Origin: an uncultured Anaerolineae bacterium
Lineage (GTDB): Bacteria > Chloroflexota > Anaerolineae > VGOG01
Assembly: GCA_964510205.1 (NCBI GenBank)
Contig: CAZEBW010000001.1
Location: forward strand, 86,226 to 150,225
DNA length: 64,000 nucleotides
Reading direction: 5' to 3'
This document shows, in pieces, positions 2,633-63,971 of the stretch. Made by a program: the position numbers and the translations under genes. Within the stretch, counting starts at the first letter, position 1. The number at the start of each line of letters is the position of its first letter. The notes under the pieces were generated by a model, which was not told where the DNA came from, searched no databases, and saw only the letters and a program-made list of their open reading frames with translations.

Positions 2633-3478
2633 CTAAAACACGCAGCACTCCCGGCCCTGCACGATGCTCAGACCTAACTCCGTGGCCAGTTGCACAGCTT
2701 GGCGGGCGGGACTCACGATTTTGTTGACGCCAGCCCGCACGGCCAGGGGATCTAAACTAGCCCGATACTTGCCGTGGGGCCGCATGCAGCCGAGGTGAAT
2801 GGGTTTGTCGGGGAAGCGCAGCCGGGCCTCGGCCAGAATGTTGACCACAGCCTCAATGGGCGGCGGCGGGCGGTCGGCGTAGCGGGTGCCGCTGGTGGGC
2901 GTGAAAACGATAAGCACCAGGCCATCTACCCCCAGCTCCCGGAGCTTTTCCATGGCTGCGCGCTCGTGGCCCAGATCGCCCCCGCGCAAGCCGATGGTGA
3001 TGTGGGGAATCACCGTGGTGTGTCGGCGGAGCATCTGGTAAGTTTCCACGTAGTCGGCAATGGTACGATCGAGACCGTAGACCTCGCGGATGGTCTCATC
3101 GTCGCCCACGAAGTCGAAGGACACCACATCGGTGTAGGAGGCGATGGCGCGGAGGTCTGCCTCCTCAATGAGTCCCACGTGCCAATTCATCTTGCGCCCC
3201 TGGCGGATGGCCTTGATCTGTTCAAGATGCTGCGTCACCGGCACGCGCCCTGAGGCGTCGCAGCCGCCGGAGATGAGGCAACTGCTGGCTCCCCCCATCT
3301 CTGCTCGCCAGACGGGGGTCATGTGCTGAAGGTAATACCCGCCGCAGTGGGCACAGTCCAGCTCGCAGTGATGCCCGGTGAGGCTGATGAGGGCGGTATC
3401 GAATGGATACACGAACTCGATTTCTGGGGAGAAGTGCGCCTGTCTGACTCGCCAGGCCTCTTCTAGACTTTCGTACAT
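2633..3478 (-). CDS. radical SAM protein (BioB/LipA-like fold, function unknown)
   Basis: CELDCAHC = CxxxCxxC cluster motif near the N-terminus. ATG 3478 is preceded by GGAG; the track start at 3496 is a TTG without an RBS. Confidence 0.75.
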   Translation of the reverse strand: MYESLEEAWRVRQAHFSPEIEFVYPFDTALISLTGHHCELDCAHCGGYYLQHMTPVWRAEMGGASSCLISGGCDASGRVPVTQHLEQIKAIRQGRKMNWHVGLIEEADLRAIASYTDVVSFDFVGDDETIREVYGLDRTIADYVETYQMLRRHTTVIPHITIGLRGGDLGHERAAMEKLRELGVDGLVLIVFTPTSGTRYADRPPPPIEAVVNILAEARLRFPDKPIHLGCMRPHGKYRASLDPLAVRAGVNKIVSPARQAVQLATELGLSIVQGRECCVF

Positions 3479-3540
3479 GGTGTCTCCAGCTTCCAATTGT
3501 TGACCCTGCTTTCACCTGGGATTCATGGGGTTCGTACTGA

Positions 3541-5599
<2,059 letters not shown>

Positions 5600-42209: not shown

Positions 42210-43625
42210 TCAGCGAGTGTCGCTCCGTTTGCACTCTGATGTAAAGCTCTTAGCTAAGACTTCCTCCCCCACTTTGTACCCATCCCCCGCTCCCAAGGTG
42301 AGGAGCACATCGCCGGGCTTTAGATGATCGAGCAAATGGCCAGCGGCCTCGTCTAGGCCAGGGATGTAGCGAGCGTCGGGATGCCTCATGCGAGCCACGA
42401 TGTCGGCCGCGCTCAGCCCCAGATCATCGTCCTCGCGGGCAGCGTAGATGTCGGTCACGACCACGTGGTCGGCGTCGGCGAAGCTGGCGGCAAATTCGTC
42501 CAGCAAGGCCCTGGTGCGGCTGTAGGTGTGCGGCTGGAAGACGGCCCAAATGGCGCGCCCTGGATAGCGCCCCCGCGCCGCCCGCAAGGTCGTCCGTATC
42601 TGGGTGGGATGGTGGGCATAATCGTCAATGACCACCACGCCGTCGCGAGCCTTTCCGCCCGCTTCGCCCTTGACCTCGAAGCGCCGCTGCACCCCACGAT
42701 AACTTCTCAGCGACTCTCCTACGTCTGCCATATCCAGGCCCAGCCGATGGGCGACGGCCAGCACCGCCAGGGAATTCTGCACATTGTGCAGGCCGGGGAT
42801 GCGCAAAGTGAACTCTCCCACAGACTTCCCCTCGTGCAGGGCCACGAAATCGCTGCCGCCCAGTTCATTAGGCCGGACATCGACCGCCCGCCAATCCACC
42901 CACTCGCCCAACCCGTAGGTAACAAGCTCAGCTTCCAGCTTCCAGCTTCCAGCTTCCAGCACCTCCCTCACCCTCTCCTCGTCCCCGCAGCCGATGATGC
43001 AGCCATCGGCAGGCACCCGGCCCAGGAACTCGCGGAAAGCCCCCAACAAGTCATCCATCTGCGGATAGCAATCGGGATGGTCCATCTCGATGTTGGTCAC
43101 CACAGCGATCCTGGGCCGGAGCCCCAGAAAAGCACGGTCATACTCGTCGGCCTCGACGACGAAATGCTCACCCCGGCCGGCTCTGGCGTTCGTGCCCAGG
43201 TTTTGCAGGATGCCGCCGACGATGAAAGTCGGGTCCAGGCCAGCCTCGGTCAGGACGAGGGCGATCATGGCCGTGATGGTGGTCTTTCCATGAGAGCCGG
43301 CCACGGCGATGCCGAAGCGCCCCGCCATCATGCGCCCCAACATCCAGTCCCGCTTGACGACGGGGATGCCCCTGGCGCGGGCGGCTGCGGCCTCGGGATT
43401 GTCGTCCGGTATGGCCGAGGAGACGAGCACCACATCGGCCTGGCCCACGTTCTCCGCTCGGTGGCCCTGATGGACGGCGGCGCCCTGGGCGGCCAGGGCG
43501 TCGGTGATGGGCGAGAGCCTCACATCGGAGCCCGAAACCCGGTGTCCCTCTTCCAGCAGCACCTTGGCGATAGCCGAGAGGCCGATGCCGCCGATACCGA
43601 CTAGGTGAAAATGAGCGTTCTCCAT
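42210..43625 (-). CDS. murC: UDP-N-acetylmuramate--L-alanine ligase
   Basis: HFHLVGIGGIGLSAIA, GSHGKTTITAM, Mur ligase layout. Confidence 0.95.
   Translation of the reverse strand: MENAHFHLVGIGGIGLSAIAKVLLEEGHRVSGSDVRLSPITDALAAQGAAVHQGHRAENVGQADVVLVSSAIPDDNPEAAAARARGIPVVKRDWMLGRMMAGRFGIAVAGSHGKTTITAMIALVLTEAGLDPTFIVGGILQNLGTNARAGRGEHFVVEADEYDRAFLGLRPRIAVVTNIEMDHPDCYPQMDDLLGAFREFLGRVPADGCIIGCGDEERVREVLEAGSWKLEAELVTYGLGEWVDWRAVDVRPNELGGSDFVALHEGKSVGEFTLRIPGLHNVQNSLAVLAVAHRLGLDMADVGESLRSYRGVQRRFEVKGEAGGKARDGVVVIDDYAHHPTQIRTTLRAARGRYPGRAIWAVFQPHTYSRTRALLDEFAASFADADHVVVTDIYAAREDDDLGLSAADIVARMRHPDARYIPGLDEAAGHLLDHLKPGDVLLTLGAGDGYKVGEEVLAKSFTSECKRSDTR
42929..42960. repeat. heptamer tandem repeat (GCTTCCA)x4 inside murC, translated in frame
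   Basis: cagcttccagcttccagcttccagcttccagc. Encodes EAGSWKLEAE on the coding strand. Confidence 0.85.
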
Positions 43626-44855: not shown

Positions 44856-46064
44856 TCAATCCCTTTTCAACAACCGCGTTCTGCCTAATCTGTGGAGCTC
44901 CTCCGCAATGCGCCGGGCCGCATCTGGCCTGGCCAGAGCCCGCGCCCGCTCGCTCATCTCGGCCAGGGCCGCCTCGTCGTTTAGGAGCTCTAGCAGCGTC
45001 GGCAACAGCCTCTCCCCCAGATCAGCGTCGGCGACCTTAACCGCCGCCCCGCGACTGACCAGGTAGTCGGCGTTGAGCTCTTGATGCTGCCCGGCGTAGG
45101 GATAGGGCACCAAGATGCTGGGCAAGCCCAGGGCCGGGAACTCGCCCAGAGTCGCCGCTCCAGCCCGCGCCACCGCCAGGTCCGCCGCAGCCAAAGCGCT
45201 GGGCATCTCCTCATGCAGATAGGCGTATGCGCGGTAGCGGCTTCGCAACCGATCGGGCAACTTGGTCCTCCTTTCCATCACCCACTCGGCGTCCAAGGGA
45301 CCACAGATGTGGATGACCTGGCAAGACTCCAACAGGCGCTCCAGGCGCTGGCTCAGCGCCAGGTTGATGCTGCGAGCGCCCCGGCTGCCGCCAAAGACGG
45401 TGACGGTCTTCGCGCCCGCCTCCAGACCGAAGGCTTCCCTGGCCTCGATTTGGTCGGCGGCGAAGAACTCGGCCCGCACTGGGTAGCCCGCCGTCAGGAC
45501 CTTGCTCTGCGGGAAATACGCTTCCACCTCCGCAAAGGACACCGCAACCCGCTTCGCCAGGCGGCTCAGGGCGCGGACGGCCAAGCCCGGCTCCAGGTCG
45601 GGCAGCAACACCAAGATCGGCACGCGGCGAAGCCAGGCGGCTGTGGCCACGGGCGCGCACACGTACCCTCCCGTGACCAGGACGACGTCGGGAGAGAAGT
45701 CGCGCACGATGCCCAGCGATTGCACGAAGCCCGCCAGCATCTTGCAGAGATTGCCGGCCACCGTCCAGGGCGCCAGGCCGCGCAGCCCCCCCGCTGAGAT
45801 AGCCGCGAAGGGCAGTCCTTCTCGCTTGACGATCCCTTCCTCCACCCCTCCCCGGCTGCCTACGTATAGGAAATTCGTACAATCGTAGATTCGTAGATTC
45901 GTAGATTCGTAGATTCGTAGATCCGTAGATTCGTAGATTCGTAGATTCGATTCCGAATTCACGAATCCCGAGTTTACGAATCCCGAATGTACCAATTTTT
46001 CAACCACGGCGAGAATTGGATATACGTGGCCGCCCGTCCCGCCGCCCGAAATCATAATGCGCAA
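44856..46064 (-). CDS. murG: undecaprenyldiphospho-muramoylpentapeptide beta-N-acetylglucosaminyltransferase with a repeat-encoded insert after the first helix
   Basis: (L)RIMISGGGTGGHVYPILAV aligns with the MRIAISGGGTGGHIYP start of Bacillus MurG, so TTG 46064 is preferred. GTG 46088, ATG 46055 and ATG 46121 are alternatives. Confidence 0.9.
   Translation of the reverse strand: MRIMISGGGTGGHVYPILAVVEKLVHSGFVNSGFVNSESNLRIYESTDLRIYESTNLRIYDCTNFLYVGSRGGVEEGIVKREGLPFAAISAGGLRGLAPWTVAGNLCKMLAGFVQSLGIVRDFSPDVVLVTGGYVCAPVATAAWLRRVPILVLLPDLEPGLAVRALSRLAKRVAVSFAEVEAYFPQSKVLTAGYPVRAEFFAADQIEAREAFGLEAGAKTVTVFGGSRGARSINLALSQRLERLLESCQVIHICGPLDAEWVMERRTKLPDRLRSRYRAYAYLHEEMPSALAAADLAVARAGAATLGEFPALGLPSILVPYPYAGQHQELNADYLVSRGAAVKVADADLGERLLPTLLELLNDEAALAEMSERARALARPDAARRIAEELHRLGRTRLLKRD
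45884..45990. repeat. octamer tandem repeat (CGTAGATT)x8 plus 15-mer x2, inside murG and translated in frame
   Basis: cgtagattcgtagattc... then ttcacgaatcccgagtttacgaatcccgaa. Encodes SGFVNSGFVNSESNLRIYESTDLRIYESTNLRIYDCT. Confidence 0.9.
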
Positions 46065-47175
46065 TCTCGTCTTGCCCTTCCTCTCCACTGCTCCTGGAGA
46101 TGCCCAGAAGCAGGCCCACACCGGTCAAGGAAACAACCAAAGAGGAGCCGCCGTAGCTGATGAAGGGCAAGGGGATGCCTGTAAAGGGCAGGATGTTGGT
46201 GGTTACGGCGACGTTGATCAAGGCCTGGAAGATCAGCCAGCACGTTAACCCCACCGCCAGCACCGTGCCAAAATCATCGGGGGCATCCAGAGCGATTTGA
46301 AAGCCCCGATAGGCCAAGGCTGCGAACAGCCCTACCACCAGCAGACAGCCGATCAAACCCAGCTCCTCGCCCAGGACAGCGAAGATGCTATCGGTATGCG
46401 CCAGGGGGAGAAGGCCCAGTTTGTGGAATCCATCCCCCAGCCCGACACCGGCAGCCTCTCCGGCCCTCAGCGCTTCCAGGTTTTGTTGAATATGATAGCC
46501 AACGCCGCCCCCAGCCAAAGAATTCCAGTACGCTTCGACCCTTTCCAGAGCATGTTCCGATCTGGAGATCAAGAAGGCAAAGGTGACGCCGCCGAATATG
46601 AAGCCGATGCCCAACTGAGCGATATCAGCGCCAGCGATAAAGAACATGGCGATGGCCGTGACCACAATCAGGATGGCGGTGCCGAAGTCGGGCTGCAGCA
46701 CGATCAGGCCCGCCACCACGCCAATGAGAATGGCAAAGGGAACAAGGCCATAGGTCACCATGCGGAGTCGCTCCCCTTTGGAGGAAAGCCAATCGGCGAC
46801 ATAGATAATGATGATCAGCTTGCATAACTCGCTGGGCTGCACCGATCCCGAAAAGAGACCGCGCACAGAGCCAAACCTCTCTTGCCCCACAATCAGGAGA
46901 AGTATCAACAGGAACAAAGTGCCAGCCATCAGGGGAATGGAGAAGCGTCGCCAGGTGTGATAATCAACGCTCATCATCAGCACCATCCCCGCCGTGCCCA
47001 GCAGGGTCCAGATGATCTGCTTACCGAAAAAGTAGGTCGGCTGGTCAAATTCCACATCACCAAAATCGAAGCTGGCGCTGTAGATCATCAGCAGACCGAT
47101 GAGAATCAAGCTGGCCAAGATGATGATCAATGGGTAGTCAATCCGCTTGGTTGTCTCACCGCTGTATACTGCCAT
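46000..47175 (-). CDS. ftsW: peptidoglycan glycosyltransferase FtsW (SEDS family)
   Basis: 10-TM SEDS layout, QPSELCKL, LPFISYGGSSLV. ATG 47175 with a GGAGGGGAG RBS. Confidence 0.92.
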   Translation of the reverse strand: MAVYSGETTKRIDYPLIIILASLILIGLLMIYSASFDFGDVEFDQPTYFFGKQIIWTLLGTAGMVLMMSVDYHTWRRFSIPLMAGTLFLLILLLIVGQERFGSVRGLFSGSVQPSELCKLIIIIYVADWLSSKGERLRMVTYGLVPFAILIGVVAGLIVLQPDFGTAILIVVTAIAMFFIAGADIAQLGIGFIFGGVTFAFLISRSEHALERVEAYWNSLAGGGVGYHIQQNLEALRAGEAAGVGLGDGFHKLGLLPLAHTDSIFAVLGEELGLIGCLLVVGLFAALAYRGFQIALDAPDDFGTVLAVGLTCWLIFQALINVAVTTNILPFTGIPLPFISYGGSSLVVSLTGVGLLLGISRSSGEEGQDEIAHYDFGRRDGRPRISNSRRG

Positions 47176-47275: not shown

Positions 47276-48757
47276 TCAAAGCGCTTTCACCAGCTCGCGG
47301 AAGCGGTCGCCTCGCTCGGCGAAGTCGCTGAAGGCGTCGAAGCTGGTACCGCCGGGCGCGAGCAGCACCACATCCCCCGGCCGCGCCTCTCTCGCTGCTG
47401 CGCCAACCGCCTCCTCCAGCGTGGCGCACCTAACCACCTGGCATCTCGCACCTGGCATCCCGCCCCTGGCCTCCTGCACCGCCCTCTCGATAATGGGCGC
47501 CGCCTCCCCAAACAGAACCAAGCACCGCACCTTCTGCAGCGTGAGTCGCGCCATCTCATCCCAGAGCAGGTGCTTGTCGCGCCCCCCGGCCAGGAGGACG
47601 ATGGGTTGATCGAACGAACGCAGGGCGGCGACGGCGCGCTCCGGGGAGGTGGCGATGGAATCGTTATAGTATCGCACCCCATCCAGCTCCCGCACCAGCT
47701 CCAAGCGGTGTTCCACGCCCTCGAATGTGGCGGCCACCTCGGCCATCGCCTGCCGCGAAGCCCCTGCCGCCCCAGCTATGGCACAGGCCGCCAGGATGTT
47801 TTCCAAGTTGTGCCGCCCCAAAAGCCGGATTGCATCGGCAGAGCAGATCCGCTGTTCCGTATCTTTCAACCTGAGCACAATCTGGCCATCTCGCAGAAAT
47901 GCTCCCTCCTCCACCTCCTCATTCAAACTGAAACTCAGAATTCGAGATTGTAGGTTGTAGGTTGTAGATTGTAGATTTGTGATTTGAGATTTGGTTATCG
48001 GGTTGTCATATCCTAGAACAGCTACGTCCCCTGGCTTTTGAAAACGCAGGATGTTGAGCTTGGCCTGGGTGTAGGCTTCCATGGAGGGGTGGCGATCCAG
48101 GTGGTTGGGCGTGATGTTGAGAATGGCGGCAATGGGCGGGCTCCACGCCATGATCTCCAGTTGGAAGCTCGACAGCTCCATCACTACTTTGTCGGTGGGC
48201 TCAATGTCCTCCAGGCGGCTGATGAGCGGGCGGCCGATATTCCCCCCTACCCAGGTACGGAAGCCACTGGCCCTGTCAGGACGGGCCTTCAGCATCTGGC
48301 CCACCAGGCTGACGGTGGTCGTTTTACCGCTGGAGCCGGTGACGCCGATGATGGGCGCCGGACACAGCTCGGTGAACAGCTTGGTCTCGCTGCTGATGGG
48401 AATGCCCCGCCTCTGGGCCTCCGCGACAATCGGAGCCTCCAGCGGCACGCCCGGGCTGATGAACAAGGTGTCGGCATCGTCCAAAATCTCCGACGGATGC
48501 CCACCGAGAGCGTAGCGGATGGGCAAGTCCTTCAGTTTTTCAATACTCTCCTGCAGCTCCTCCTCGCTCTTGAGATCGCTGACCGTGACTTCGATCCCTC
48601 GCTCGGCCAGGAACCTGGCCAGCGCTGTCCCTTCCCGCGCCAGACCGATGATGGAACAACGGACTAAAGCATCTAATGGACTTGGCCTCACTGCTTCTTG
48701 CTCCTCGCCCCCCGCCCCTTGCTCCTCGACTACCTTGCCGGCGGCGGGTTGCCCCAC
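47276..48757 (-). CDS. murD: UDP-N-acetylmuramoylalanine--D-glutamate ligase
   Basis: IIGLAREGTALARFL, GVTGSSGKTTT, GGNIG, LAGGRDK. Confidence 0.92.
   Translation of the reverse strand: MGQPAAGKVVEEQGAGGEEQEAVRPSPLDALVRCSIIGLAREGTALARFLAERGIEVTVSDLKSEEELQESIEKLKDLPIRYALGGHPSEILDDADTLFISPGVPLEAPIVAEAQRRGIPISSETKLFTELCPAPIIGVTGSSGKTTTVSLVGQMLKARPDRASGFRTWVGGNIGRPLISRLEDIEPTDKVVMELSSFQLEIMAWSPPIAAILNITPNHLDRHPSMEAYTQAKLNILRFQKPGDVAVLGYDNPITKSQITNLQSTTYNLQSRILSFSLNEEVEEGAFLRDGQIVLRLKDTEQRICSADAIRLLGRHNLENILAACAIAGAAGASRQAMAEVAATFEGVEHRLELVRELDGVRYYNDSIATSPERAVAALRSFDQPIVLLAGGRDKHLLWDEMARLTLQKVRCLVLFGEAAPIIERAVQEARGGMPGARCQVVRCATLEEAVGAAAREARPGDVVLLAPGGTSFDAFSDFAERGDRFRELVKAL
47946..47994. repeat. 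heptamer tandem repeat (GTTGTAG / GATTTGN units) inside murD, translated in frame
   Basis: gattgtaggttgtaggttgtagattgtagatttgtgatttgagatttgg. Encodes KSQITNLQSTTYNLQS. Confidence 0.85.
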
Positions 48758-49855: not shown

Positions 49856-51379
49856 TCAGGTATTGGCTACTGATAGAGCAGCAACAATCTCTTCCATCTC
49901 CATGCCGCGAGAGCCTTTGACCAGGATGACGTCCCCAGGAGCGACAATCTCGCGCAGGCAGGCGATGGCACTGTCGTTGTTCTCCTCTATGAAAACCCTG
50001 TCTCTTCCCATGCCGAAGGCCAGCGCCTCCTCGGCGATGAGGCGGCCTCGCTCTCCCACGGTGATGAGCACAGTCGCCACGTCCAGGGCCCGCCGACCGA
50101 CTTTTCGGTGTCCTTCTTCTTCGTAGGTCCCCAGTTCCAACATGTCACCGAGCACGGCGATCTTCCGCCCATCCAGCTCCTCAACCAGGTTGAGCGCGGC
50201 GATGGTGGAAGTGGGGCTGGCGTTGTAGGTGTCGTCCAGGATGGTCGAGCCTCGCAGACCCGGCGCCACCACCAGACGCAGTTGCGCCGCCCCCTGCAAT
50301 CCATCTATGATCTCCGCCCACGATTGCCCCTCGACCAAGCCCACGGCGGCAGCGGCCAAAGCGGTGTGCACACTGTGCCGCCCCAACATCGGCACCTTGG
50401 CGTGAATCGTCTCAGACCCATGATGGAAGCGGAAGCGGATGCCCTCCAGACCCTGACCCTCGATATCGTTGGCCCACAGGTCACAGGTTGGATCCAAGCC
50501 ATAATAGAAGACCTGGGCCCTGGTCTGGGCCGCCATCTGGCGCACGCGGGGGTCGTCACCGTTGAGGATGGCTACGCCTCCCGACGAATAGGGGGGCAGC
50601 GCTTCCACCAGCTCCGTCTTGGCCTGGGCGATGCGCTCGATGGTGCCCAGCCGCTCCAGATGGGTGGGACCCACGTTGGTGACCACACCGACGTGGGGAC
50701 GGGCAATGGCCGCCAGCTCCGCGATTTCCCCCAGGTCGTACATGCCCATCTCCAGGACGACCCGCTGGTGGCTCGGCTCCAGCTTCAAGAGCGTCAAGGG
50801 CAGGCCCGTCTCGCTGTTGTAGTTGCCTTCGCTCCTCAGGGTGTGAAATCGCTGATTGAGAACGCCGTAGATCATCTCCTTGGTGGTGGTCTTGCCGATG
50901 CTGCCCGTGACGCCCACCACGCGGGGAGTATGCTTGCCGCGCCAGTGAGCGGCCACTTTCTGCAGAGCTTTGAGGCTGTCTTCGACGATGAAGCAGGCTG
51001 GAAGTTGGAGATTGGAAGCTGGAGGTTGGAAGGGCGCCTGTCTAACGTCCACTTTCCAACATCCAACGTCCAATGCTCTTTCCACGATGGCCGCTATGGC
51101 GCCGCGCTGGAAGGCGTCGGCGACGTAGTCGTGTCCATCCTTGTGCTCACCCTTCAGAGCCACGAAGAGGCTGCCGGGAGTGGCCCGTCGCGAGTCTATG
51201 ACCGCATCGCTCAGCTTCTGTTCCCTGTACTTGTCGTCCAGGACAAGTGCCAAGTTGGGCGGCCTGTGGCCGGTGAGACCCTCCACCACATTGGCCAGGG
51301 TCAACGCCGCTGCGCTCGCCACAGCCTTTTGACTACGCTCAGAACGCCCGTGAACTCCACCGGGCTCAGGACGTTGCAT
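49856..51379 (-). CDS. murF: UDP-N-acetylmuramoyl-tripeptide--D-alanyl-D-alanine ligase
   Basis: GVTGSIGKTTTKE, NYNSETGLPLTLL, EMGMYDLGEI. Confidence 0.92.
   Translation of the reverse strand: MQRPEPGGVHGRSERSQKAVASAAALTLANVVEGLTGHRPPNLALVLDDKYREQKLSDAVIDSRRATPGSLFVALKGEHKDGHDYVADAFQRGAIAAIVERALDVGCWKVDVRQAPFQPPASNLQLPACFIVEDSLKALQKVAAHWRGKHTPRVVGVTGSIGKTTTKEMIYGVLNQRFHTLRSEGNYNSETGLPLTLLKLEPSHQRVVLEMGMYDLGEIAELAAIARPHVGVVTNVGPTHLERLGTIERIAQAKTELVEALPPYSSGGVAILNGDDPRVRQMAAQTRAQVFYYGLDPTCDLWANDIEGQGLEGIRFRFHHGSETIHAKVPMLGRHSVHTALAAAAVGLVEGQSWAEIIDGLQGAAQLRLVVAPGLRGSTILDDTYNASPTSTIAALNLVEELDGRKIAVLGDMLELGTYEEEGHRKVGRRALDVATVLITVGERGRLIAEEALAFGMGRDRVFIEENNDSAIACLREIVAPGDVILVKGSRGMEMEEIVAALSVANT
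50997..51076. repeat. palindromic heptamer repeat (GGAAGTT/GGAGATT/GGAAGCT... facing TTTCCAA/CATCCAA...) inside murF, translated in frame
   Basis: ggctggaagttggagattggaagctggaggttggaaggg...cactttccaacatccaacgtccaatgc. Encodes DVGCWKVDVRQAPFQPPASNLQLPA. Confidence 0.85.
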
Positions 51380-59187: not shown

Positions 59188-59509
59188 GTTCCACCTCCCG
59201 TTGGTGATTGGCTCGGGCTAAGCTACGAAGCAACAGTAATTATACAGTTTAAGTCGTCATTTGGCAAAATCACATCCACAGCGATTGAAAGCCGCCTTCA
59301 CATCCTGTCATTGCGAGCCGACCCTTGGACAGGCTCAGAGCAGGCGGCGAGCAAGCCCTTACCTTGCACACGCTTGACACCACTCGTTTTTTCTGTTACA
59401 ATCGAAAAGGTGATGCGACATGTGGGCGCCCAACGCGAACACTTTGCCAGCCAAAGGCTCCCGGGTAGTCTCCTTATGGAGTGTTGCTACGCCAACACGG
59501 GCTGTTTGT

Positions 59510-59659: not shown

Positions 59660-62600
59660 ATGGGACGAATGGGGGGGGGTATCATGGACCACTCAAATCC
59701 GAAGCCTGGGGATCACCTCTGTTGCATCTACGAGACGGAGGAGGAGCACCGGGCGGTGCTGACGCCTTTCCTACGTCAAGGACTGGAGAGCGGCGAGAAG
59801 GTGGTCTACATCGTGGATGCCCGCACCGCCGAGGCCATCCGGGACTACTTGCGCCAGGATGGGCTGGACGTGGAACCGCGCCTAGCCAGCAGGCAGCTGA
59901 GCATCCTCACCCGAGACGATGCCTACATGCGAGAGGGTGTCTTTGACCCAGAGGGTATGATTGCGCTGCTGCGGGCCGAGACCAAGCAGGCCCTGGCCGA
60001 GGGCTACCCGGCTCTGCGGGTGACCGGCGAGATGACCTGGGCGCTGCGGGGGTTGCCCGGTTCCGAGCGGCTGATCGAATACGAGGCCAAGCTGAACGAG
60101 TTCCTTCCTGGCAACCAGTGCTTGGCCATCTGTCAATACGACCGGCGACGCTTTGATTCGGAGGTCTTGCTAGACGTGCTGCGCACCCATCCTATTGCCG
60201 TTATCGGCGCCGACATCTACGACAACTTCTACTACATCCCCCCGGACGATCTGCTGGGCGGCGACCTTGCGGCGGTGGAGCTGGGCTACTGGCTGGAGAA
60301 CCTGGCCAAGCGCAAGGGTACGGAAGAGGCGCTGCGAAAGAGCGAAGAGAAATACAGGAACATCCTCGAAAGCATTGAAGATGGGTATTACGAGGTTGAT
60401 ATCGCCGGGAATTTCACTTTCTTTAATGATGCCTTATGTCAGATGTTAGGGTATTCCAGAGACGAAATGATGGGAATGAACAACAGGCAGTACATGGATA
60501 AAGAAAATGCCAAAAAAGTGTATCAAACATTCAATCGAGTATACACCACGGGGGAGCCTGACAAAGGATTTGATTGGGAGATCATTAGAAAGGATGGTGC
60601 AAAGAAATTTGTTGAAGCTTCCGCTTCTCTGATAAAAAATTCAGAAGGTGAGCCGATTGGGTTTCGCGGCATCGCCCGCGACGTCACCGAGCGGAAGCGC
60701 ATGGAGGAGGCACTTAAGGCAAGTGAAGAGCACTACCGCAGCCTGTTTGACCGCGTGCCCGTGGGGCTCTACCGCACCACGCCGGAGGGACAGGTCCTCG
60801 ACGCCAACTCGGCCCTGGTGCAGATGCTGGGCTACCCAGATCGGGAGTCCCTGTTGGCAGTCGCTGTGACTGACGGTTATGAAGATCCTGAGGAGCGCAC
60901 GCGGTGGCAGGCCCTGATAGAGCGCGAAGGGGTCGTGCGCGACTTTGAGGTGCAGTGGCGACGGCACGATGGAACGATTATCTGGGTGAGGGACAACGCC
61001 CGAGTGGTCCAAGATGGCGAAGGCCAGGTACTGTACTACGAAGGGGCTGTGGAAGACATCACCGAGCGCAAGCAGCGAACCATGGAAATCTCGACCATGC
61101 TAGAGGTAACTAAGGCCGTCTCATCCACGCTCCACCTCGAAGAGGTGCTGACTCTCATCAGTGAGCAGCTGGTCAAGGCTATGGGAGTGGATGGCTGCGC
61201 TCTCTCCCGGTGGGACCAGGAGGCCGATGCAGTTGTCACCTGGATCGAATTTCGTCGTCAGGATCCCGAATGGGCCGACGAGCCAGGCACCACCTATGCC
61301 CTGGACGATTTTCCGGCCACCCGGGCTGTGCTGGAGACTCGCCAACCCCTCGCCATCCACGTCTCTGACCTCGACGCCGATGCGGCCGAGCTTGCGTACA
61401 TGCGGAAAGTGGAAAGCGCAAGCCTGCTCATGTTGCCACTGGCCGTCGGCGATCGGGTCGTCGGTCTGGTCGAATTGGATCAAAGCGAATACGAGCGGGT
61501 CTTCACAGCGGCCGAAATCCGCCTGTGCCAGGCCCTGGCAAACCAGGCGGCCATCGCCATCCGAAACGCGCGGCTGTTTGAGGCCGAACGCAACCAACGT
61601 GAACTGGCCGAGGCGCTGCAGGAAGCGGCCGCTGCCGTCAGCAGTACGCTGGATCTCGACGGGGTGCTGGACCACATCCTGGAGCAGGTGGAACGGGCCG
61701 TCGCCGGGGACGCCTTCAGTGTTATGTTGATCGAAGAGGACATCGCTCATCTGGCCCGCTGGCGAGGGTACGAGCTACCGGGAGAGAAGACACAACCCCT
61801 GCCTTTCGATATCCCCATGACCAAGTACCCCAACCTGATCAAGATGGCGCGGACGGGGAGGCCTATCATTGTGCCCGACACAGCGCTCGACCCCGACTGG
61901 GTCCCGGCGGCAAGGGACCAGGAGTGGCGGCGGTCCTACGTCGGCGTTCCCATCCGGTTGGGGGGCGCGACGGTGGGCTTCCTGGGCGCGAGCGGCACCC
62001 GGCCGGGGCACTTCGGACCCGAAGACGCCCGACGAATGGAGGCCCTTGCCAGTCACGCTGCCACCGCCATTGGGAACGCGCGGCTGCTGGACGCAATCAA
62101 CGAGCATAGAACAGACCTGCAAAGGTTGTCGGTCCAGCTCCTCAGTGCACAGGAGGAAGAACGCAGAAGGCTCTCCTTGGAGCTGCACGATGAGCTTGGA
62201 CAGGCACTGACGGCGATAAGCTTCGATCTGGCAGCCATCGAGAAAGAGCTACCGCCAGAGCTTATCCCCAGGATCAGGGAGATATTGGCCGAGACAGGTT
62301 CGCTGGTCAACGAAGTAGACGACCAGGTCCGTGAGTTGGCCCTTGATCTGCGGCCCTACATGCTGGACGATCTCGGTCTGGTGCCAGCATTACGGTGGTA
62401 CGTGAACCGATACGCCAAGAGACTAAACATCGAGGTCGAGTTTGAAGCGATTGATCTGGAGGACAGGCTGACTGCAGATATGGAAACGGCTCTCTACCGC
62501 GTGGTGCAGGAGGCCTTGACCAACGTGGCCAGGCACGCGCAAGCCAACAGGGTAAGTGTGTGTCTGGAGCGCAAGGTGTCCACAGTGACCGCCTCCATTG

Positions 62601-62770
62601 AAGACGATGGCCGGGGCTTCGATGAAAAGCAGCTTGCAGGCCGTGAAGCCCCGCAGCGTGGCATAGGGCTGTTAGGGATACGAGAAAGGGCGACCTTTCT
62701 GGGAGGCAGCCTCAGTATCCAATCGCATCCAGGGGAGGGAACGCGGCTGGCGATAGAAATGCCTGTGTGA
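59660..62770 (+). CDS. multidomain sensor histidine kinase: MEDS - PAS x2 - GAF x2 - HisKA_3 - HATPase_c
   Basis: GDHLCCIYETEEEHRAVLTPFLRQGLESGEKVVYIV (MEDS). PAS segments with ...RDVTERK. LHDELGQALTAI (HisKA_3 His box). GRGFD...GIGLLGIRERA (ATPase). ATG 59684 is an alternative start. Confidence 0.9.
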   Translation: MGRMGGGIMDHSNPKPGDHLCCIYETEEEHRAVLTPFLRQGLESGEKVVYIVDARTAEAIRDYLRQDGLDVEPRLASRQLSILTRDDAYMREGVFDPEGMIALLRAETKQALAEGYPALRVTGEMTWALRGLPGSERLIEYEAKLNEFLPGNQCLAICQYDRRRFDSEVLLDVLRTHPIAVIGADIYDNFYYIPPDDLLGGDLAAVELGYWLENLAKRKGTEEALRKSEEKYRNILESIEDGYYEVDIAGNFTFFNDALCQMLGYSRDEMMGMNNRQYMDKENAKKVYQTFNRVYTTGEPDKGFDWEIIRKDGAKKFVEASASLIKNSEGEPIGFRGIARDVTERKRMEEALKASEEHYRSLFDRVPVGLYRTTPEGQVLDANSALVQMLGYPDRESLLAVAVTDGYEDPEERTRWQALIEREGVVRDFEVQWRRHDGTIIWVRDNARVVQDGEGQVLYYEGAVEDITERKQRTMEISTMLEVTKAVSSTLHLEEVLTLISEQLVKAMGVDGCALSRWDQEADAVVTWIEFRRQDPEWADEPGTTYALDDFPATRAVLETRQPLAIHVSDLDADAAELAYMRKVESASLLMLPLAVGDRVVGLVELDQSEYERVFTAAEIRLCQALANQAAIAIRNARLFEAERNQRELAEALQEAAAAVSSTLDLDGVLDHILEQVERAVAGDAFSVMLIEEDIAHLARWRGYELPGEKTQPLPFDIPMTKYPNLIKMARTGRPIIVPDTALDPDWVPAARDQEWRRSYVGVPIRLGGATVGFLGASGTRPGHFGPEDARRMEALASHAATAIGNARLLDAINEHRTDLQRLSVQLLSAQEEERRRLSLELHDELGQALTAISFDLAAIEKELPPELIPRIREILAETGSLVNEVDDQVRELALDLRPYMLDDLGLVPALRWYVNRYAKRLNIEVEFEAIDLEDRLTADMETALYRVVQEALTNVARHAQANRVSVCLERKVSTVTASIEDDGRGFDEKQLAGREAPQRGIGLLGIRERATFLGGSLSIQSHPGEGTRLAIEMPV

Positions 62771-62815
62771 TTTGCGATTTGCGATTTGCGATTTGCGATT
62801 GACAAATCGAAAATC
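62768..62815. repeat. heptamer hairpin (GATTTGC)x4 ... AAATCGAAAATCGC, left flank of the four-helix-bundle gene
   Basis: Starts on the kinase stop codon: tgatttgcgatttgcgatttgcgatttgcgattgacaaatcgaaaatcgc. Confidence 0.85.
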
Positions 62816-62830
62816 GCGGAGGGGAGCGAA

Positions 62831-63184
62831 ATGGATGAGGAGGATTTGAAAAGGCGTACGAAGCAGTTTGCGTTGCGGGTGATTCACCTGGTAGAAGCCT
62901 TGCCACGGACGCGAACGGCTCAGGTCGTTGGCGATCAACTCTTGCGTTCGGCGACATCGGTGGCAGCGAATTATCGGGCCGCGTGTCGGGCACGTTCACA
63001 GGCCGATTTCGTGCACAAGTTGGGTATCGTGGAGGAAGAGGCCGACGAATCCCTCTTCTGGCTGGAAATGGTGGCGGAAACTGACCTGATGCCAGCGCCA
63101 CGTGTGCAGGATCTGATCCAAGAGGCTGATGAACTCACGGCCATCTTCGTTGCCTCCCGCAAAACAGCCAAGAAAAAGAAGTGA
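62831..63184 (+). CDS. four-helix-bundle protein (23S rRNA intervening-sequence protein / Avd-like family)
   Basis: FALRVIHLVEALPRTRTAQVVGDQLLRSATSVAANYRAACRARSQADFVHKLGIVEEEADESLFWLEM is the family signature. ATG 62831 with a GGAGGGGAG RBS. Confidence 0.85.
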   Translation: MDEEDLKRRTKQFALRVIHLVEALPRTRTAQVVGDQLLRSATSVAANYRAACRARSQADFVHKLGIVEEEADESLFWLEMVAETDLMPAPRVQDLIQEADELTAIFVASRKTAKKKK

Positions 63185-63238
63185 TTTTCGATTCGCGAAT
63201 GAGAATCGAAAATCGAAAATCGGCAATCGAAAATCGAG
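63183..63238. repeat. heptamer hairpin GATTTTCGATTCGC ... (GAATCGAAAATCG)n, right flank of the four-helix-bundle gene
   Basis: gattttcgattcgcgaatgagaatcgaaaatcgaaaatcggcaatcgaaaatcga. Complementary unit type to the left flank. Confidence 0.85.
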
Positions 63239-63249
63239 AGGGGTGGGTT

Positions 63250-63903
63250 ATGAACAAGATAAGAGTCCTGTTGGCCGAGGATCATACCATCGTTCGCAAG
63301 GGGCTGCGCGCCCTTCTGGAGGGCGAGGCAAACATAGAGGTGATAGGGGAAGCCGAGGATGGGAGAGAGGCCATTCAGAAGGTTGGACAGTTGCACCCCG
63401 ACCTGGTACTGATGGATATCACCATGCCGGCCCTCAACGGCCTGGAGGCTACCCGCCAAATCAAAAAGCTGTTTCCTGGGGTCAAGGTTTTGATTCTGAC
63501 CATGCACGCTAACGAGGAGTACATCTTTCAAATCCTGCGGGCCGGGGCTTCAGGATACGTGGTCAAGAAAGCAGCGCCCACAGAACTGGTCTCGGCCATC
63601 CAGGCCGTTCACCGTGGCGATTCCTTCCTCAGCCCCTCCATCTCCAAGGGCGTCATCGAAGAGTATATCCGGCAGGCCGAGGCGATGACCCTGGACAGTT
63701 ATGATAAACTTACCAACCGCGAACGAGAGGTGCTGCAACTGGTCGCCGAGGGTCACTCGACCCGAGGGATCGCCGAGTTGCTGCACATAACCGAAGGAAC
63801 AGTTCGCAGCCACAGAGCCCATCTGATGAACAAGCTCGATATTCACAGCACGGCAGAACTGACCCAATACGCCAGCCGTAAGGGAGCGATCAGTATAGAG
63901 TAA
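63250..63903 (+). CDS. NarL/FixJ-family response regulator (receiver + LuxR-type HTH)
   Basis: IRVLLAEDHTIVRKGL...DLVLMDITMP receiver. LTNREREVLQLVAEGHSTRGIAELLHITEGTVRSH HTH. Confidence 0.93.
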   Translation: MNKIRVLLAEDHTIVRKGLRALLEGEANIEVIGEAEDGREAIQKVGQLHPDLVLMDITMPALNGLEATRQIKKLFPGVKVLILTMHANEEYIFQILRAGASGYVVKKAAPTELVSAIQAVHRGDSFLSPSISKGVIEEYIRQAEAMTLDSYDKLTNREREVLQLVAEGHSTRGIAELLHITEGTVRSHRAHLMNKLDIHSTAELTQYASRKGAISIE

Positions 63904-63940
63904 TGCCTTAAGATAAGACCTCGCGCTTGCAATGATCAAA

Positions 63941-63971
63941 AGACCCTGCGTTTTCGCAGGGTCTTTTTTTG
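63941..63971 (+). terminator. rho-independent terminator after the response regulator gene
   Basis: agaccctgcg-tttt-cgcagggtct followed by ttttttg. Confidence 0.75.

Follow-up and report, generated by a model that had tools for sequence, protein, structure and literature searches.

The question raised by this locus is why a small gene for a four-helix-bundle (FHB) protein stands precisely between a histidine kinase (HK) gene and the gene of its response regulator (RR), with tandem heptamers on both sides. The locus lies in the window, by which we mean the whole 64,000-nt (64-kb) stretch of DNA that was analysed, and it was compared with loci from other genomes, which carry L-numbers (L002, L180 and so on). 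A preliminary description of this DNA had taken hairpin, gene and hairpin for a discrete insertion unit with repeat termini and no recombinase. Our analysis supported that view, because the arrays bound the sequence similarity in non-homologous contexts and distant HK-RR pairs were free of the cassette. We consider it probable that the segment 62769-63236 is one copy of a widespread, promoterless cassette of about 450 nt, which is of the same type as the intervening sequences (IVS) of 23S rRNA and is carried in the operon transcript. The cassette consists of a gene of the PF05635 family, which has a ribosome-binding site of its own, and of complementary arrays on either side of it that are built from 7-nt units with a GATT/AATC core; the arrays accompany the FHB gene into unrelated operons.

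The cassette takes up 468 nt, from the kinase stop codon to the ribosome-binding site of the RR gene, and the spacing between HK and RR is 479 nt. As had been described, an array that begins within the kinase TGA, (GATTTGC)x4.6 (x4 in the description), folds back on CAAATCGAAAATCGC (shuffle z = -3.6), and the 117-aa FHB open reading frame (ORF) is followed by a second hairpin, in which GATTTTCGATTC (63183-63194) pairs with GAATCGAAAATC (63203-63214) over 12 nt with 100% complementarity (repeat I17). The description was right to within one base, the gap to the RR ATG having been put at 12 nt when it is actually 13 nt. The two flanks fold at -28.2 and -23.0 kcal/mol, far better than their shuffles (z = -3.6 and -3.7), none of which (0 of 200) was as stable. 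The sequences between HK and FHB and between FHB and RR repeat each other in direct orientation (families D1-D3) and have a common layout, which is TGA, GATTTNC units, spacer, GAAAATC units and GAGGGG. The left outer array (62769-62800) is the 5' arm both of local hairpin 1 and of a long-range inverted repeat, so that the outer arrays make up a 32-nt inverted repeat around the FHB gene with 84% complementarity (I1). When all 511 nt were folded, the two outer arrays were predicted to form a long-range closing stem around the two local hairpins. The FHB ORF is preceded by GGAGG, and on the right an AATCGAA-type array (TRF AATCGAA x4.9) runs up to 63236, with GAGAGGGG between its end and the RR ATG.

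When one genome of every GTDB species was scanned for the family, at least 597 loci came up, and 80 of them with an FHB protein identity of 53-67% were kept. These loci span Chloroflexota, Planctomycetota, Verrucomicrobiota, Acidobacteriota, Bacteroidota, Cyanobacteria, Nitrospirota and others. By eye, almost every locus showed a period-7 array rich in G+T upstream of the gene and the complementary array downstream of it, and the unit varied by lineage (GATTTTC/GAAAATC, GGAATGC/GCATTCC, TAATTGAG/CTCAATTA and more). We then scored the best ungapped inverted match between 110-nt flanks for the 74 FHB loci with usable flanks and for 176 control genes taken from the same loci. The median inverted-flank score was 17.5 for the FHB loci versus 7 for the control genes, and 86% of the FHB loci versus 5% of the controls were above the control 95th percentile (Mann-Whitney p = 2e-27), so the idea that other members of the family have repeat flanks as well received strong support. 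Direct-repeat flank scores of the FHB loci were no different from those of the controls. Period 7 was found in 40/47 upstream and 49/57 downstream arrays and period 8 in some, while 39 of 59 upstream units contained GATT and 43 of 62 downstream ones AATC, with the consensus G-A-T-T-(T/G)-N-N. The arms had a median length of 28 nt and the elements a median length of 446 nt (interquartile range 429-475); the arms ended a median of 22 nt before the ATG and resumed a median of 17 nt past codon 117. The commonest form was a single long-range inverted repeat (47/71 loci), and the form with two local hairpins was rare outside the window's clade (2/71); the latter recurs on two complete plasmids (L187 and L188) and at a cas6|cas1 junction (L195). 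The family-wide rule is long-range complementarity of the upstream and downstream arrays.

These figures bear on the possibility that the heptamer arrays are just independent simple-sequence hairpins that build up between the genes of repeat-rich genomes, like the short tandemly repeated repetitive (STRR) sequences, the Xanthomonas GGGAATC arrays or hairpins of the repetitive extragenic palindrome (REP) kind, and that their association with FHB is incidental. Among the long simple repeats of bacteria, heptamers are indeed reported to be the most frequent (PMC4679880, PMC4692102), heptamer or octamer arrays without FHB gene are present in the window at 42929-42960, 45873-45990, 47940-47993 and 50999-51073, and away from the cassette the arrays were about 4x denser in FHB-bearing loci than in RR loci (9.1 versus 2.3 per 100 kb). 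However, the control genes, which share their loci with the FHB genes, reached the high inverted-flank scores in only 5% of cases, and the geometry of 28-nt arms in a 446-nt element is tight and constant. The arrays also retain their unit family and travel with the gene between unrelated contexts, and within the 64-kb window GATTTNC/GAAAATC units form arrays only at the cassette. We regard an incidental association as very unlikely.

The setting of the cassette was analysed in the same way. The upstream gene was co-oriented in 70/76 loci and mostly 12-100 nt away, tandem cassette copies were found in L042 and L023, and the neighbours were functionally unrelated (116 and 83 Pfam families; for example nuoD, ABC ATPase|permease pairs, DNA methylases and BrxL). 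Close relatives, with FHB proteins 79-96% identical to that of the window, had GATTTNC...GNAAATC hairpins on both sides in every locus inspected, and the few named matches among them were Anaerolineae/Chloroflexota. These hairpins start at or 1 nt past the preceding stop codon and end just before the next ribosome-binding site, and the array copy number varied among near-identical strains (L012 is L010 minus one GGAAATC unit). The loci L002, L006, L010, L011, L186 and L189 are homologous to the window operon (HK C-termini 64-73% and RR receivers 79-83% identical), and all of them have the cassette, with related flanks in L002, L006, L010 and L189. Three other loci were discordant. The FHB protein of L180 is 90% identical to that of the window, whereas its host HAMP-HisKA kinase has a C-terminus only 25% identical and its stand-alone RR receiver is 31% identical; the same discordance was found in L184 (FHB 79% identical; SBP-PAS-HisKA kinase and receiver) and in L018 (FHB 89% identical; cassette after a NarL-type regulator and before a terminator). 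Among these non-homologous loci the sequence similarity starts and stops at the arrays, which indicates that the unit moved between operons together with its arrays.

Every relative examined at 79-96% identity adjoins two-component genes, and at least three non-homologous host systems are involved, namely the HisKA_3|NarL type (window, L002, L010, L186 and L189), HAMP-HisKA|receiver (L180) and SBP-PAS-HisKA|receiver (L184). This would be expected if FHB served two-component signalling as an accessory protein, for example by modulating the pair of kinase and regulator, with the hairpins as regulatory RNA that sets the kinase:regulator ratio and with a position that is functional and not parasitic. 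The same can be said of the retention of the cassette at the homologous junction over a host-gene dS (synonymous divergence) of about 0.5-0.6 and of the strong purifying selection on the protein. However, the kinase|regulator preference was confined to the window's clade, and relatives at 53-73% identity showed the same architecture in liv, nuo, ABC-transporter, CRISPR, restriction-modification (R-M)/BREX and tRNA-Sec contexts, with Response_reg in only 3/70 and HATPase_c in 2/70 of the upstream neighbours. In L018 the cassette follows the regulator and the terminator comes next. The protein has no conserved histidine that would suggest phosphotransfer, and a histidine-phosphotransfer (HPt-like) role was rejected for this reason. 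On balance we find a signalling accessory unlikely.

One pair of the homologous loci differed in the kinase. L010 and L011 have an identical FHB protein (P0006), the same flanks and the same RR, and their kinases differ in N-terminal architecture (a 1159-aa HisKA_7TM-PAS-GAF protein versus a MEDS-GAF protein of >1327 aa), which suggests sensor-domain swapping or paralogous operons with a common cassette-regulator module.

Further variants were found among the more distant loci. In L192 two successive junctions of one branched-chain amino-acid ABC transporter (liv) operon each contain a cassette (1705-2073 and 3001-3372; about 88% identity), in the order permease|FHB|ATPase|FHB|ATPase, and each cassette has its own complementary arrays. 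The double-hairpin cassette of L195 (2860-3540; GCA_964419895.1) has GGATCGC/GATCCAAAATCC units and separates cas6 from cas1 in a CRISPR-Cas locus. Both complete plasmids have it in a defence locus, which is drmD|FHB|MmeI-type R-M in L188 (1712-2540; Planktothrix agardhii plasmid p1) and DUF1156|FHB|Swt1-family HEPN in L187 (1827-2499; Ca. Chlorohelix allophototropha plasmid), and in L187 a hairpin of about 110 nt, loop and all, occurs on each side of the gene as an almost exact duplicate. In two Pyrinomonadaceae genomes (L054, 2850-3001; L070, 2840-3001) the upstream array begins a few bases past the 3' end of tRNA-Sec. L066 has a second, divergent PF05635-type gene of 114 aa (3186-3690; PHROG 'Avd protein of DGR', 8e-8), whose flanks consist of (AGTTGAA)n and (TTTAACT)n and lack the GATT core, and it has a solo (GATTTTT)x10 array after the next gene (4864-4940). 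Because the flanks of this paralogue are complementary non-GATT arrays, the rule extends beyond the GATT-core subfamily. In L097, from an unclassified metagenome-assembled genome, two matches to the Acido-Lenti-1 small RNA (RF01687; 1838-1883 and 3853-3898) flank the region of the FHB cassette. The arrays also have practical consequences. Gene callers ran FHB C-termini and RR N-termini through the stop-free heptamer arrays in many loci (for example L024, L025, L043, L183, L184 and L186), which resulted in 'FHB' proteins of 125-160 aa and in repeat-encoded N-terminal tails like ...IGNRKSKIENR..., and this is systematic for the FHB family. Such ORF read-through puts false N- and C-terminal extensions into annotation; the arrays also break assemblies and may alter the stoichiometry of operon products.

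The features of the window locus are collected in Table 1. A promoter-like site was found only 5' of the kinase, with the weaker match inside the kinase gene, and a terminator-like site only after the RR, so that the cassette must be read within an HK-FHB-RR transcript, the one route of expression open to it. No other promoter-like or terminator-like site was found on the + strand between 59374 and 63967, and none of the terminator kind inside the cassette, so that the one after the RR is the sole + strand terminator-like site. The cassette hairpins as terminators were ruled out, as they have no T-run on the + strand. Known RNA families were also considered, and no Rfam match was obtained in 62600-63400. 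There is no integrase nearby and the two-component operon has a single cassette, which sets it apart from an integron gene cassette.

Table 1 Features of the HK-FHB-RR operon and its cassette in the window
Feature	Position	Strand	Basis or remark
Promoter-like site TTGACA-17-TACAAT, 11/12, TG	59374..59402	+	5' of kinase; likely operon promoter
HK, 1036 aa, MEDS-PAS-GAF-GAF-HisKA_3-HATPase_c	59660..62770	+	ORF and domain search; stop TGA 62768-62770
Weaker promoter-like match, internal to kinase gene	60558-60585	+	
Left outer array (GATTTGC)x4.6	62769..62800	+	TRF score 64, 100% match; begins within kinase stop codon
Left inner arm CAAATCGAAAATCGC, 3' arm of local hairpin 1	62803..62817	+	
Shine-Dalgarno-like GGAGGGGAG, 4-12 nt 5' of FHB ATG	62818..62826	+	Sequence reading
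FHB gene, 117 aa, PF05635 / TIGR02436 (23S rRNA IVS protein family)	62831..63184	+	
Right inner arm GATTTTCGATTC, 5' arm of local hairpin 2	63183..63194	+	Begins within FHB stop codon
Right outer array GAATCGAAAATCGAAAATCGGCAATCGAAAATCG	63203..63236	+	3' arm of hairpin 2 and of long-range inverted repeat
Shine-Dalgarno-like GAGAGGGGT 5' of RR ATG	63236..63244	+	Sequence reading
NarL/LuxR-type RR, 217 aa, Response_reg + GerE	63250..63903	+	Gap from array end 13 nt
Intrinsic terminator-like hairpin and T-run	63938..63967	+	Likely end of HK-FHB-RR transcription unit

The assignment of the FHB protein to the IVS-protein/Avd-like family, which had been made from the sequence, was confirmed in several ways. 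The profile scores were above the cut-offs (PF05635, 61.3 bits, cut-off 33.8; TIGR02436, 89.2 bits, cut-off 24), and the AlphaFold2 model had four helices with a pLDDT of 97. The top Foldseek matches were 2RLD (TM 0.86) and 2GSC (TM 0.83), followed by Avd (4DWL/8UB7, TM 0.75-0.78, 16% identity). One solved structure, 2RLD, whose entry contains five chains, was also matched by sequence (E = 3e-24). The family is large, with 11,304 clusters at 50% identity (E <= 1e-3), and the one function assigned within it is that of Avd in diversity-generating retroelements. Against close relatives, dN/dS was 0.07-0.14 for FHB, about 0.2 for the adjacent RR and about 0.35 for the kinase C-terminus. The FHB protein is under strong purifying selection, which means that the gene is maintained and not a relic. 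A defence function was rejected, since FHB had no PADLOC match and R-M/BREX genes are only a minority of the neighbours.

The family relationship raises a further explanation, that the gene is the Avd accessory of a diversity-generating retroelement (DGR), whose template or target would include the repeats. To act, Avd binds structured RNA in concert with a reverse transcriptase (RT). The window protein resembles Avd of Bordetella phage BPP-1 in its four-helix-bundle fold at the TM values just given, the DGR literature treats the PF05635 and Avd families as homologous (PMC10053308), and the divergent paralogue of L066 matches the Avd PHROG. However, the window protein itself had no match to this PHROG at E <= 0.01 and shares 16% identity with Avd, its neighbours are a kinase and a regulator, and the operon has neither an RT nor a pair of template and variable repeats. 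No adjacent RT was found in any cassette locus inspected. A DGR is extremely improbable as the explanation and is effectively refuted at the window locus.

The preliminary description had also linked the cassette termini to in-frame repeat inserts in the murD and murG genes of the window. On the - strand, the murG gene (44856-46121) has an octamer hairpin at 45873-45990, with (GATTCGTA)x9.6 and TACGAATC-type units, which adds about 40 aa in frame to the N-terminal domain of MurG; the translation reads ...HVYPILAVVEKL, then the insert VHSGFVNSGFVNSESNLRIYESTDLRIYESTNLRIYDCTN, then FLYVGSRGG..., and Glyco_transf_28 resumes only at profile position 31. Period-7 arrays are located in an uninterrupted MurD-like ORF (array 47940-47993; ORF 47276-48757; about aa 255-273 of Mur_ligase_M), in an uninterrupted Mur-ligase ORF (array 50999-51073; ORF 49856-51379; about aa 102-127, in an interdomain position and accompanied by a TCCAACN arm complementary to it) and in an uninterrupted MurC-like ORF (array 42929-42960; ORF 42210-43625; about aa 222-232). 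The GATT/AATC core is common to these arrays and the cassette, but the units differ, so the link to the cassette is only suggestive. A wider form of the idea would be that PF05635 proteins and GATT-core heptamer arrays form a self-propagating system, in which the Avd-like protein would recognise the arms and promote their copying by template switching or by a trans-acting RT, and which is the source of the cassettes of about 450 nt including the rRNA IVSs, of solo heptamer hairpins and of the mur in-frame inserts (murG, murD and others). We put this forward as a speculation that is rather unlikely to hold as a whole. If it were true, the rRNA IVSs and the abundant heptamer repeats of cyanobacteria, Xanthomonas, Chloroflexota and others would have a common origin.

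If the segment is an IVS-type cassette, as we favour, the following course can be proposed. The arrays would pair in the transcript, in the window as two local hairpins with a closing stem and in most relatives as one long stem that encloses the ORF. By analogy with the rRNA IVS, the stems may serve as double-strand RNA processing or stability elements, and processing could free or protect the FHB message while the flanking cistrons stay usable. The GATT core is kept at 7-nt spacing across phyla, which suggests recognition by a conserved factor, and the Avd-like protein is itself the only part of the element that is conserved. This protein may bind to the arms with their GATT repeats, in the form of RNA or of single-stranded DNA, and so favour retention or copying of the element. 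New copies might be formed when the arrays recombine or when copying switches template within them. This route is suggested by the complete hairpin that the window, L187 and L188 have in duplicate, one copy on each side of the gene (hairpin-FHB-hairpin), and likewise by the tandem copies and by the copies in adjacent junctions. Insertions would survive only at intercistronic junctions, where they would be transcribed and harmless.

Insertion between stop codon and ribosome-binding site was supported by more distant HK-RR pairs. In a comparison set of 80 loci from a metagenome scan with the window RR (RR identity 29-75%), 0/80 had an FHB gene or heptamer arrays, and HK and RR were directly adjacent with 15-100 nt between them (for example L101, '...catTGAggagagatctaATG'). 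Of the HK-RR loci from which the preliminary description proposed to define the insertion, the distant pairs were free of the cassette, but the close homologues (L002, L006, L010 and L189) all carry it, with related flanks. Integration into pre-existing solo hairpins was considered as well and set aside, as no landing-pad hairpins were found in the clade loci or on plasmids.

Several points weigh against the cassette as a mobile transcript element. The presence of the cassette at homologous HK-RR loci means that it is old at the window junction, where it is vertically inherited. Between the window and L002/L010, dS was 0.25-0.41 for FHB and 0.47-0.60 for HK and RR, and a recent transfer at the homologous junction was considered on this basis; FHB dS is below that of HK and RR, but 116 codons are not decisive and vertical descent is adequate. 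The strong preference of the clade for kinase|regulator junctions is left unexplained by the model. There was no close empty site, as the RR scan of metagenomes gave only loci with at most 75% identity, and on plasmids the search for one ended with all three Planktothrix plasmids with the drmD-MmeI locus carrying the cassette. No closely related empty site was found that would have shown the exact ends and any target-site duplication, and no filled/empty polymorphism was captured among the loci compared. Solo GATTTNC hairpins were not found elsewhere in about 70 kb of clade loci, and the duplicated hairpin of the Chlorohelix plasmid had no other copy on plasmids. The arm mismatches showed no excess of sense-strand G:U-type over antisense-type pairs (51 versus 43, p = 0.47), which means that the complementarity could be a DNA-level property or a by-product of element formation. 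Finally, the comparison loci are mostly metagenome assemblies, with which the isolate or complete records L026, L187 and L188 agree.

The cassette has points in common with several known systems. Foldback transposons and MITEs (miniature transposable elements with inverted repeats) of eukaryotes have terminal inverted repeats of short tandem units. They are like the cassette in their variable-number tandem units in terminal repeats, small size and lack of an own transposase; the cassette differs in its conserved, selected ORF, and no target-site duplication was identified among the loci compared, where close empty sites were absent. REP/REPIN elements with their RAYT genes also have a gene flanked by inverted short-repeat copies and a repeat that is dispersed as intergenic operon hairpins. 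FHB, however, is not an HUH/Y1 transposase, the solo arrays use other units than the cassette, and matching dispersed solo hairpins were not found in the window, in the clade loci or on plasmids. Heptamer arrays such as the cyanobacterial STRR, Xanthomonas GGGAATC and Beggiatoaceae TAACTGA share the period of 7, the intergenic position, the variable copy number and often the arrangement in convergent pairs, of which about 70 were described in X. campestris (PMC4692102), and units related to known heptamer arrays (GGGGATT, GGAATGC) flank FHB genes in our comparison loci. By contrast, the heptamer-array papers do not mention a gene between paired arrays, and the words 'S23' and 'hypothetical protein' are absent from PMC4692102.

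The closest known system is the 23S rRNA IVS of Leptospira and Coxiella burnetii with its S23p ORF. Both carry a gene of the PF05635 family, and they agree in size (428-444 nt in Coxiella; here 446 nt at the median, with 468 nt for the window copy). They further share terminal inverted repeats of about 28 nt around the ORF (the window arms being 32 nt with 84% complementarity), tandem heptamers by the ORF that vary among strains, the lack of a recombinase and a sporadic distribution. In Coxiella, a 28-bp terminal stem is cut by RNase III, and 2-3 tandem heptamers in a strain-variable number lie upstream of the PF05635 ORF; how rRNA intervening sequences arose and spread has been an open question since the early 1990s (PMC4990558). 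The cassette differs in that it lies in an mRNA operon between protein genes and not in helix 9, 25 or 45, and that in the window its arms are tandem GATT-core heptamers with an additional local hairpin on each side. RNase III excision, reported for Coxiella, would be a prediction for the present cassette, and the window protein is under selection whereas the Coxiella ORF was judged unexpressed and decaying. ORF-bearing 23S rRNA IVSs, the relationship of PF05635 and Avd and the abundance of heptamer arrays were each known separately. In a search that left most subscription journals outside, we found no paper that brings the three together or that presents PF05635 genes as a cargo which inverted repeats of heptamer arrays enclose at operon junctions. 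The element described here is an IVS-type element outside rRNA, and the question can be tested, since the cis element is defined, the protein is conserved and the natural insertion contexts are many, some of them in tractable Nostoc, Xanthomonas, Bacteroides and Planktothrix. If PF05635 genes generally form array-bracketed units of about 450 nt, the rRNA IVS would be one landing site of a general intercistronic element.

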